From Escherichia phage JLK-2012, in the sequence record NC_049942.1: 57,198 bases of DNA; one strand, given 5' to 3'. Shown piece after piece: positions 7,992 through 9,983 of the stretch; the stretch's first letter is position 1, and each line of letters opens with the position of its first letter. The position numbers and the translations under genes were made by a program. The notes beneath the pieces are model-generated. The model was not told the origin of the DNA. It was given only the letters and a program-made list of their open reading frames with translations, and made no database searches.

Positions 7992-8253
7992 CTGTTCATA
8001 TCCTCACAGATAAAAAATCGCCCTCACATTGGAGGGCAAAGAAGATTTCCAATAATCAGAACAAGTCGGCTCCTGTTTAGTTACGAGCGACATTGCTCCG
8101 TGTATTCACTCGTTGGAATGAATACACAGTGCTTATTCGTACTAATAAAATACCCAATTTTCTGTTTCTTGGTTGTGTCCAAAGTTATATTCAATATCTG
8201 GTGTTGATGTATGAACCGCCCCGGTTTTCCTGGAGAGTGTTTTATCTGTGAAC

Positions 8254-9141
8254 TCAGGCTGCCAGATCATCGTTTCTGATGGAAGCATAATAAGCTTTTT
8301 CTGCTTCTGCCGGAGGGATATGACCCAGCCTTCCCAGCAATCGTCGATTGTTATACCAGTCCACCCACGTGAGTGTGGCCAGTTCCACTTCTGCACGGTT
8401 TTTCCAGCTCTTACGGTGTATTACCTCCGCTTTGTAAAGACCATTGATGCTCTCCGCCATCGCGTTGTCATACGAGTCACCTGTACTCCCTGTTGATGCC
8501 AGCAGTTTTGCTTCTTTTAGTCGCTCCGTATAGGCCAGTGATACATACTGAGAACCTTTATCACTGTGATGGACTGTGCCGGACGGCCGACGGGCCCACA
8601 ACGCCTGCTCCAGTGCATCCAGCACGAATGTCGTTTCCATAGACGATGAGACTCGCCACCCCACGATGCATCCGGCAAACACATCAATGATGAACGCCAC
8701 ATAGACGAAGCCCTGCCATGTGCTGACGTAAGTAAAATCAGCCACCCACAGCTGGTCAGGACGTTCTGCCACGAACTGACGGTTTACGCGGTCGCCTGCG
8801 GAAACGGCTTTCCGGCTGACGGTAGTACGGACCTTTTTACCCCGGAGAACACCGGCAAGTCCCATAACCGCCATGAGGCGCGCCACTGTACATCTGGCCA
8901 CCCTGATACCTTCGCGTAACAACTGGCGCCAGACTTTACGCACACCGTACACCTGATGATTTTCATCGTATACGCGCTGTATCTCTCTCTTCAGCCAGTC
9001 ATCGCGCTGCGCACGGGCACTGCGTTTATCAGGATGATGTCGCTGTTGCTGACAGTGGTAATACGTTGACGGGGCAATATGCAGTTCACTGCATACCGGT
9101 CCGACCCCGTACTGCTCACGCAGCTTATCCAGCAGTGGCAT
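8254..9141 (-). CDS. IS629 transposase OrfB (DDE catalytic part of the OrfAB frameshift product)
   Basis: 295 aa [40 protein letters not shown]... recalled as IS629/IS1203 OrfB. Confidence 0.9.
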   Translation of the reverse strand: MPLLDKLREQYGVGPVCSELHIAPSTYYHCQQQRHHPDKRSARAQRDDWLKREIQRVYDENHQVYGVRKVWRQLLREGIRVARCTVARLMAVMGLAGVLRGKKVRTTVSRKAVSAGDRVNRQFVAERPDQLWVADFTYVSTWQGFVYVAFIIDVFAGCIVGWRVSSSMETTFVLDALEQALWARRPSGTVHHSDKGSQYVSLAYTERLKEAKLLASTGSTGDSYDNAMAESINGLYKAEVIHRKSWKNRAEVELATLTWVDWYNNRRLLGRLGHIPPAEAEKAYYASIRNDDLAA

Positions 9142-9467
9142 TATTTTTTCCAGAGGCGGTCGAACTCCGCCTTCGCAAAATAAGCGGAAGCCTGGCGAAG
9201 GATATCGTTACTGCGGCGCAGTTCACGATTTTCACGTTCCAGCTCTTTCAGACGCTGACGTTCAGCGGTGGTGAATCCACCATCACCACTCCCGGTATCC
9301 CGCTCATGCTGACGAACCCACACACGCAGAGTCTCTGGCGTACAGCCAATCTTTGGGGCAATGGAACAAATTGCCGCCCATTGTGAGTCATATTCGCCCT
9401 GACTTTCCAGAACCATACGAACTGCCCGTTGACGGACCTCGGGGGAAAAACGTGTATTTTTAGTCAT
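9141..9467 (-). CDS. IS629 transposase OrfA (HTH part)
   Basis: 108 aa [59 protein letters not shown]...; overlaps orfB in the -1 frame. Confidence 0.9.
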
Positions 9468-9983
9468 CCTGTTTACCTCTTTCTCAGGGAGTTTAGTCTC
9501 CAGGATTCCCGGGGCGGTTCAGTATCAATATTCTTCATACCATCAACAAGAGTTGATACAACAGCCAAATCTTGTTTGATTCTCATTAAATGGTATTTCT
9601 TCCGGCGCAATAAACTTTCAATGGCAAGTTTCTTCGTTGGGAATGCAAAAGATCTTTCTGCATTTTTTGCTACTTTCTTAATTGCATATCTATTTCTCCT
9701 TTGTTTCCATTCCTGTAACCACTGATTTGGTGCTGGTTTAAAATTAACAATCCAATGCGCAGGAACCAACCATGCATAATGCTCTGTCTGATGAAAAGCT
9801 ATATATTGAAGTGCGAATATTTTTATCCCATCTTCTTCAACTGTCGCCTGGAATCTCCAGAAAACAGGCATTCCATCATGTTCAGTTTCTGATTCAGGAA
9901 AAGGTACGCTCCATGATTTTGTCATATCTCACCTCAAATAAGTGGTTTGCTGCCTAATTTCATTTTCTGGCGACCAACACAAG

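Follow-up and report, generated by a model that had tools for sequence, protein, structure and literature searches.

IS629 in codon 135 of the L0079 homologue of a 933W-like prophage in Escherichia coli O55:H7 DEC5E, with a probably small effect on the downstream pL operon

Among the drivers of small-scale variation in the prophages of enterohaemorrhagic and enteropathogenic Escherichia coli (EHEC and EPEC), IS629 is the best known, and the copy number and position of this insertion sequence (IS) were reported by Yin et al. to be the chief variation among induced Shiga toxin 2a (Stx2a) phages (PMC4587872). Among the closest described systems are two prophages of O157:H7 strain 9000. Its Stx2a prophage, at argW, carries a copy of the related IS1203 in the homologue of the 933W gene L0079, an insertion also present in the Z-series genomes, and its Stx2c prophage has an IS629-family element in the lambdoid left arm, within xis, for which an effect on excision was proposed (PMC5359411). 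Here we analyze a 57,198-nucleotide stretch (the window; NC_049942.1, Escherichia phage JLK-2012) that corresponds to positions 1885391..1942588 of NZ_CP038383.1, E. coli O55:H7 DEC5E, and holds a lambdoid prophage integrated beside mlrA (yehV). An IS lies in its early-left operon, downstream of a pL-like promoter and between the antiterminator gene N and ea10. We consider it likely that an intact IS629 copy recently entered codon 135 of the L0079 homologue, that this gene was inactivated, and that the pL operon downstream is little affected.

The insertion in DEC5E resembles that in the strain 9000 Stx2a prophage in the gene struck, in its orientation, in its position (11 bp apart), in having a 3-bp target duplication (CTG in strain 9000) and in a neighbourhood of 933W-type N, nutL and stk. 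The strain 9000 prophage differs in that it carries another IS subtype, has another backbone left of cIII and encodes stx2a, and its type of insertion occurs in at least 25 complete genomes among those listed, against a single genome for the DEC5E event. A more distant parallel is provided by the classical polar IS1 and IS2 insertions in gal and lac, in which an IS likewise sits in an operon and the outcome is set by the resistance of the polymerase to termination; unlike those operons, the DEC5E operon has its own nutL and N upstream, so that suppression is built in. The Stx2a phages PST1 and PST2, which have been diversified by IS629, are similar in that non-essential or accessory lambdoid genes are struck and the phages are still inducible, but their sites lie in the right operon or the late region, for example in the roi, lysozyme and methyltransferase genes (PMC4587872). 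The Stx2c prophage of strain 9000 differs in that the IS disrupts xis itself, whereas xis and int are intact in DEC5E.

A reading made earlier from the sequence alone had proposed a 1310-bp IS3-family element with both inverted-repeat ends and orfA/orfB, flanked by a GTA target duplication, and the window bears this out exactly:

8212..9521 (−): complete IS629-type insertion sequence (IS3 family), 1310 bp, with its transposase genes co-directional with pL transcription
8209..8211: left GTA copy of the 3-bp target-site duplication
9522..9524: right GTA copy of the 3-bp target-site duplication
9497..9521 (−): left inverted repeat (IRL, in the element's own orientation), the IS end adjoining orfA
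8212..8236 (−): right inverted repeat (IRR), the IS end past orfB
9141..9467 (−): orfA, 108 amino acids, Pfam HTH_Tnp_1 (E = 2.6e-12)
8254..9141 (−): orfB, 295 amino acids, with HTH_21, rve (DDE), rve_3 and rve_2 domains
9070..9186 (−): ALIL pseudoknot (Rfam RF01497), a frameshift stimulator, with the A6 run included

The terminal sequences, read from the window and by script, are TGAACCGCCCCGG at the start of the element and CCGGGGCGGTTCA at its finish; all 13 of the 13 terminal bases are inverted-identical, as are 22 of the first 25, and the ends have the form TGAACC...GGTTCA. In an ungapped 1488-nt alignment, the uninterrupted site of 933W has GTA just once. The product of orfB matches rve with E = 1.1e-25 and the NCBIfam model transpos_IS3 with 312 bits (cut-off 160), and its translation contains the motifs ADFTY, HSDKGSQY and ESINGLYK. 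The two open reading frames (ORFs) overlap by ATGA in the −1 frame, immediately past an A6 slippery run (GGAAAAAATAATG) at the orfA stop, and the ALIL element scores 120.9 bits against a gathering score of 50 (E = 3.8e-32). The Prokaryotic Genome Annotation Pipeline (PGAP) treats 8254..9467 of the source genome as a single IS3-family transposase with a programmed frameshift, a prediction from sequence. Length, TG...CA ends, two-ORF layout, frameshift signal and 3-bp duplication are all those of the IS3 family and IS629. No second IS copy able to mediate deletions is present in the window, where only the two ends of this element occur, and the DEC5E chromosome carries about 17–19 copies of this IS end. 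The element is apparently intact, and its intact ORFs and ends, together with these chromosomal copies, suggest that it is active.

Its assignment within the group follows from comparison with annotated copies. The element is 99.5–99.9% identical to many plasmid-borne copies, with 99.5% identity both to the AP019707.1 copy, which bears the annotation 'IS629 transposase OrfA/OrfB', and to a copy on a plasmid of Shigella flexneri; with copies in Stx phages it shares 99.6% identity. The IS1203 copies of O157:H7, as labelled by PGAP, are 95.3–95.7% identical to it (about 4.3% divergence, 56 mismatches). Rump et al. described three IS629 sub-types that lie 4–5% apart, found a Shigella-like 'sub-type II' in O55:H7, and gave a target duplication size of 3–4 bp (PMC3271280). 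The name IS629 given by the sequence-only reading is therefore right, because the identity pattern fits these sub-types; with the annotated copies as a proxy for the named element, the element in the window is identified as IS629. It shares with IS629 and its isoforms IS1203 and IS3411 (IS3 group) the 1310-bp length, the TGAACCGCCCCGG repeats, orfA/orfB, the ALIL element and the 3-bp duplication, and about 4.3% separates it from the IS1203-type copies, the predominant kind in O157:H7.

Removal of the IS and one GTA in silico leaves 1488 nt that align ungapped to 933W (AF125520 7994..9481) with 99.9% identity, and that also align to Min27, 24B and many other Stx phages. As the sequence-only reading had stated, a 156-codon ORF reappears on the minus strand; its product is identical to 933W L0079, and intact relatives free of the IS do exist, both as L0079 of 933W and as an empty site in 565 complete genomes. 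The placement between ea10 and N is likewise correct:

9984..10367 (−): antiterminator N, 127 amino acids, identical to 933W N
9473..9925 (−): truncated L0079 homologue, 150 amino acids, of which 134 are native and 16 IS-encoded (PGAP WP_000167591.1)
8141..8208 (−): orphaned L0079 3′ end, codons 136–156 and the stop (codon 135 is the duplicated GTA)
7623..7991 (−): ea10/ssb (DUF2528), nearest intact gene on the downstream side of the IS

The gene had been described as split by the element; it is indeed interrupted, but not in its middle, since the insertion lies at codon 135 of 156, towards the 3′ end. In the proposed mechanism, a single IS629, transposing by the copy-out/paste-in route of the IS3 family, would have entered codon 135 and duplicated GTA. 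The L0079 frame now runs 16 codons into the IS and stops, which would inactivate the gene. The recipient is a 933W-like lambdoid prophage without stx at mlrA/yehV of DEC5E.

The 22 C-terminal residues of L0079 are lost through the insertion. Restored L0079 matches phrog_1636, a family with no assigned function, over positions 1–156 of 156 (E = 2.7e-112), and has no match in Pfam, NCBIfam or PDB profile searches; PADLOC gave only a non-significant hit to Cas1_II (E = 0.018), and a literature search on 'L0079' returned unrelated papers only. A search of 5.8 billion proteins gave a narrow family, with members in Enterobacterales (Escherichia, Pectobacterium, Cronobacter, Brenneria and Rosenbergiella). 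Among 20 homologues with identities down to 55%, residues F144, H146, N147, E149, T150, W153 and F155 are invariant, and the C-terminal motif to which they belong, YNFGHNxETExWxF, is encoded wholly beyond the insertion point. This motif marks where the function of L0079 probably resides, and because the part cut off comprises these invariant residues, L0079 has probably been inactivated by the IS. L0079 is a conserved accessory gene, carried by some 10% of the complete E. coli genomes, that is repeatedly struck by IS629-family elements.

The consequences for the operon depend on what lies on either side of the IS. On the minus strand the order is pL-like promoter, nutL, N, truncated L0079, IS, terminator, ea10, cIII, kil, gam, bet, exo and, further on, xis and int. 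The genes from ea10 to int named here are all intact, on the same strand and downstream of the IS; the IS does lie in the pL operon, as the sequence-only reading had stated. Four further elements were located on this strand:

10617..10645 (−): pL-like sigma-70 promoter, TTGATA-17-CATTAT (a consensus match only, the position of which fits the 933W layout)
10533..10599 (−): nutL, identical to the annotated 933W feature (AF125520 9614..9680)
8018..8039 (−): native intrinsic-terminator-like hairpin and T-run, between L0079 and ea10
7505..7563 (−): match to the lambda cIII thermoregulator RNA element (Rfam RF01804, 84 bits), where cIII begins

The pL-like promoter, nutL and N are 100% identical to those of 933W, and the insertion thus does not lie in an operon that lacks a functional N or nut site upstream. 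RNA polymerase modified by N resists both Rho-dependent and intrinsic terminators, and lambda N was reportedly found by Adhya, Gottesman and de Crombrugghe in 1974 to relieve the polarity of IS insertions. The lambda antitermination complex includes NusA and NusB, and lambda N is recruited by boxB (reviewed in PMC12360218); a search of one literature collection for papers on antitermination at 933W nutL gave no match. Because promoter, nutL and N are identical to those of 933W, the polymerase that enters the IS should be N-modified. The strong native hairpin (8039..8018, −), with an 8-bp stem containing five GC pairs followed by TTTTTTAT, resembles a tL1-type terminator; it precedes ea10, and the downstream genes therefore require antitermination with or without the IS. 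In the proposed mechanism, pL transcripts would be modified by the intact N at nutL, likewise intact, and would read through the IS as they must already do through this native terminator.

This is consistent with the behaviour of related phages. Shaaban et al. reported that the strain 9000 Stx2a prophage, with its IS in the same orientation at nearly the same spot, excises spontaneously and 'routinely' (PMC5359411). That prophage contains a second IS copy further down the operon, in an ASCH gene (28570..29783 of its locus), opposed to pL. The Stx2a phage vB_EcoP_phi345, which has 933W-type immunity and carries IS629 in kil (3501..4810, opposed to pL), was obtained from a clinical EHEC strain by spontaneous induction and plaque-purified (PMC12502783). 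By analogy with these phages and from the layout of the operon, the IS probably has little effect on how strongly ea10, cIII, kil, gam, bet, exo, xis and int are expressed once the prophage is induced. An IS in a lambdoid early operon should thus not be presumed polar, because such an operon carries its own antitermination system.

Several points weigh against this reading. The int gene of the strain 9000 prophage is on the strand opposite the pL operon, and the example therefore covers the operon and xis but not int; in DEC5E, xis and int are both downstream on the pL strand. The support that phi345 may lend by analogy is limited by the undated insertion of the IS in kil. A weak terminator-like hairpin lies inside orfB (8754..8739, −), and the roughly 0.9 kb of orfB, mostly untranslated on a read-through transcript, would be a good substrate for Rho, so that incomplete antitermination could bring some reduction; a quantitative, partial reduction of downstream expression is possible. 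For L0079, loss of function rests on conservation, and the AlphaFold model from 20 homologues is poor (predicted local distance difference test, pLDDT, 59.6).

At the N locus of DEC5E, Z563, strain 9000 and other genomes, PGAP annotates just a 69-nt pseudogene ('regulator, missing N-terminus'); given the intact 127-amino-acid ORF identical to 933W N, this call looks like an annotation artefact. Two further features were sought at the IS ends. A promoter scan gave no candidate for an outward hybrid promoter at the end towards ea10, and a protective RNA structure across the IS end (UCCUGG pairing with CAGGAU at the orfA start) was rejected, as it was no better than in shuffled sequences (z = −0.92).

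Insertions near the DEC5E site were surveyed by junction searches and locus reads centred on that site, with 600 bp on either side. At least 11 IS629-family events were found in the N–ea10 segment among about 595 genomes that carry it; six of these are inside the 471-bp L0079, and a seventh is directly upstream of its start codon. Every N–ea10 insertion has its own 3–4 bp duplication except two rearranged copies. Apart from DEC5E, the insertions include the following:

FDAARGOS_1300: co-directional with pL, 1 bp from the DEC5E site, duplication TAT
Z563 / 9000: co-directional, 11 bp from the DEC5E site, duplication CTG
EL361: co-directional, in L0079, duplication ATC
O111:H11 88.0502: co-directional, in L0079, duplication ACC
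2014C-3011 group: co-directional, directly upstream of the L0079 ATG, duplication TAC
RM13322: co-directional, in ea10, duplication GTAA
SD134209: inverted, in L0079, duplication CAA
F7349: inverted, in L0079 codons 2–4, duplication TTT
ESDR8, 99E2750: inverted and rearranged, in N, no duplication

Three independent co-directional insertions (DEC5E, FDAARGOS_1300 and Z563/9000) fall inside 13 bp, at 8198..8211 of the window and equivalent positions. The three elements belong to differing IS subtypes (95.3–95.7% identity) and have the duplications GTA, TAT and CTG, respectively. Under uniform placement such a cluster has a probability of about 0.02 given the DEC5E site, or of about 0.05 when treated as a scan statistic. 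An apparent bias towards the co-directional orientation was set aside as an effect of query design, as queries for inverted junctions found seven genomes with inverted copies nearby.

This cluster, together with the high share of events in or directly upstream of L0079, could reflect a selected or preferred target, either because loss of L0079 helps the lysogen or because the 3′ end of the gene is a structural hot spot for IS629-family elements. The 13-bp cluster is suggestive of a hot spot, albeit post hoc. Statistically the case is marginal, and it comes from a search built around this very site; both orientations are represented among the insertions, and ea10, kil and N are struck as well. 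Rump et al. found no sequence-specific target for IS629 and 62% of its copies in prophages, which is a general excess (PMC3271280). Hits in essential neighbours such as N would moreover be purged, which would inflate the apparent share of L0079. We regard a selected or preferred site, at which the insertion would be one of a recurring class and not a random hit, as possible but doubtful.

A more elaborate proposal starts from the junction between L0079 and the IS. The TAA stop of truncated L0079 lies 5 nt before the orfA ATG and overlaps its Shine–Dalgarno region (9468..9475, −); in FDAARGOS_1300 and Z563 the reading frame is different and the stop is about 26 nt upstream of the orfA ATG. The spacing in DEC5E could couple translation of the transposase to pL-driven expression. 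Because the truncated ORF ends so close to the orfA start, IS629 transposase is probably elevated on induction, which in the mechanism proposed here would be a side effect of pL read-through. In its full form, the proposal has the transposase under pL/N control and translationally coupled to truncated L0079, with a burst of transposition upon SOS induction, and takes the 13-bp cluster as a real hot spot or as the outcome of selection for L0079 loss or for expression context. This conjunction strikes us as improbable.

Somewhat less probable still is that the IS is strongly polar, lowering expression from ea10 to int and trapping the prophage through reduced excision, as the sequence-only reading had suggested. 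The IS does lie in the pL transcription unit, with all these genes downstream of it on the same strand, and the largely untranslated orfB and its weak hairpin could each contribute to termination. Prophage entrapment by an IS is also a recognised idea, for example for IS629 in xis of the strain 9000 Stx2c prophage (PMC5359411), but that published example is a direct disruption of xis and not a polar effect. The suggestion fares poorly against the intact nutL and N, with which N-modified polymerase would ignore terminators and suppress IS polarity, against the native terminator behind which the downstream genes already lie, and against the routine excision of the strain 9000 Stx2a prophage (PMC5359411).

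Repeats commonly cause mis-assembly and the 17–19 IS ends on the chromosome offer ample opportunity for a mis-joined repeat, but the element is joined cleanly on both sides, the 3-bp duplication is perfect and the empty site exact, and an assembly artefact is ruled out for practical purposes because the fusion ORF, followed by the IS, recurs in two further, independent NCBI drafts (GCA_000249575.2 and GCA_003333865.1).

With the insertion thus taken as real, its frequency can be considered. Both junctions are present at 100% identity in one of 5426 complete E. coli genomes, that of DEC5E, against an empty site in 565, and the exact junction occurs in none of 50,697 phage records. The 150-amino-acid fusion ORF was found on just three contigs, those of the complete genome and the two drafts. 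Right of the IS, 2676 bp of flanking sequence match 933W at 100% identity, and on this identity and the rarity of the junction the insertion is judged to be recent and strain-specific. Taken alone it has little significance, as the element is known, its behaviour is well documented and the genome that holds the insertion is public and already annotated.

The remainder of the prophage places the insertion in context. The immunity and early-left region is of the 933W type (cI, stk, N and L0079), and stx genes are absent from the prophage. The integration site yehV/mlrA is that of the Stx1 prophages in O157:H7. At about 23400..26700 (+), past Q and three tRNA genes, genes of the TerB family, DUF3927 and DUF6645 occupy the stx position of 933W-type phages.

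Three lesions are also seen elsewhere in the prophage. The portal gene is in two overlapping ORFs (35122..36486 and 36483..37706, +), which PGAP calls frameshifted, and the J-like tail-tip gene has an internal stop at 49342..49344, with parts at 46543..49344 and 49369..50016 (+). The prophage may therefore be defective for particle production irrespective of the IS, or these portal and J lesions may be sequencing errors. In the far left arm, a DUF551 gene at about 2771..3517 (−) is represented in the annotation by two pseudogene fragments, of which one lacks the N-terminus and the other the C-terminus.

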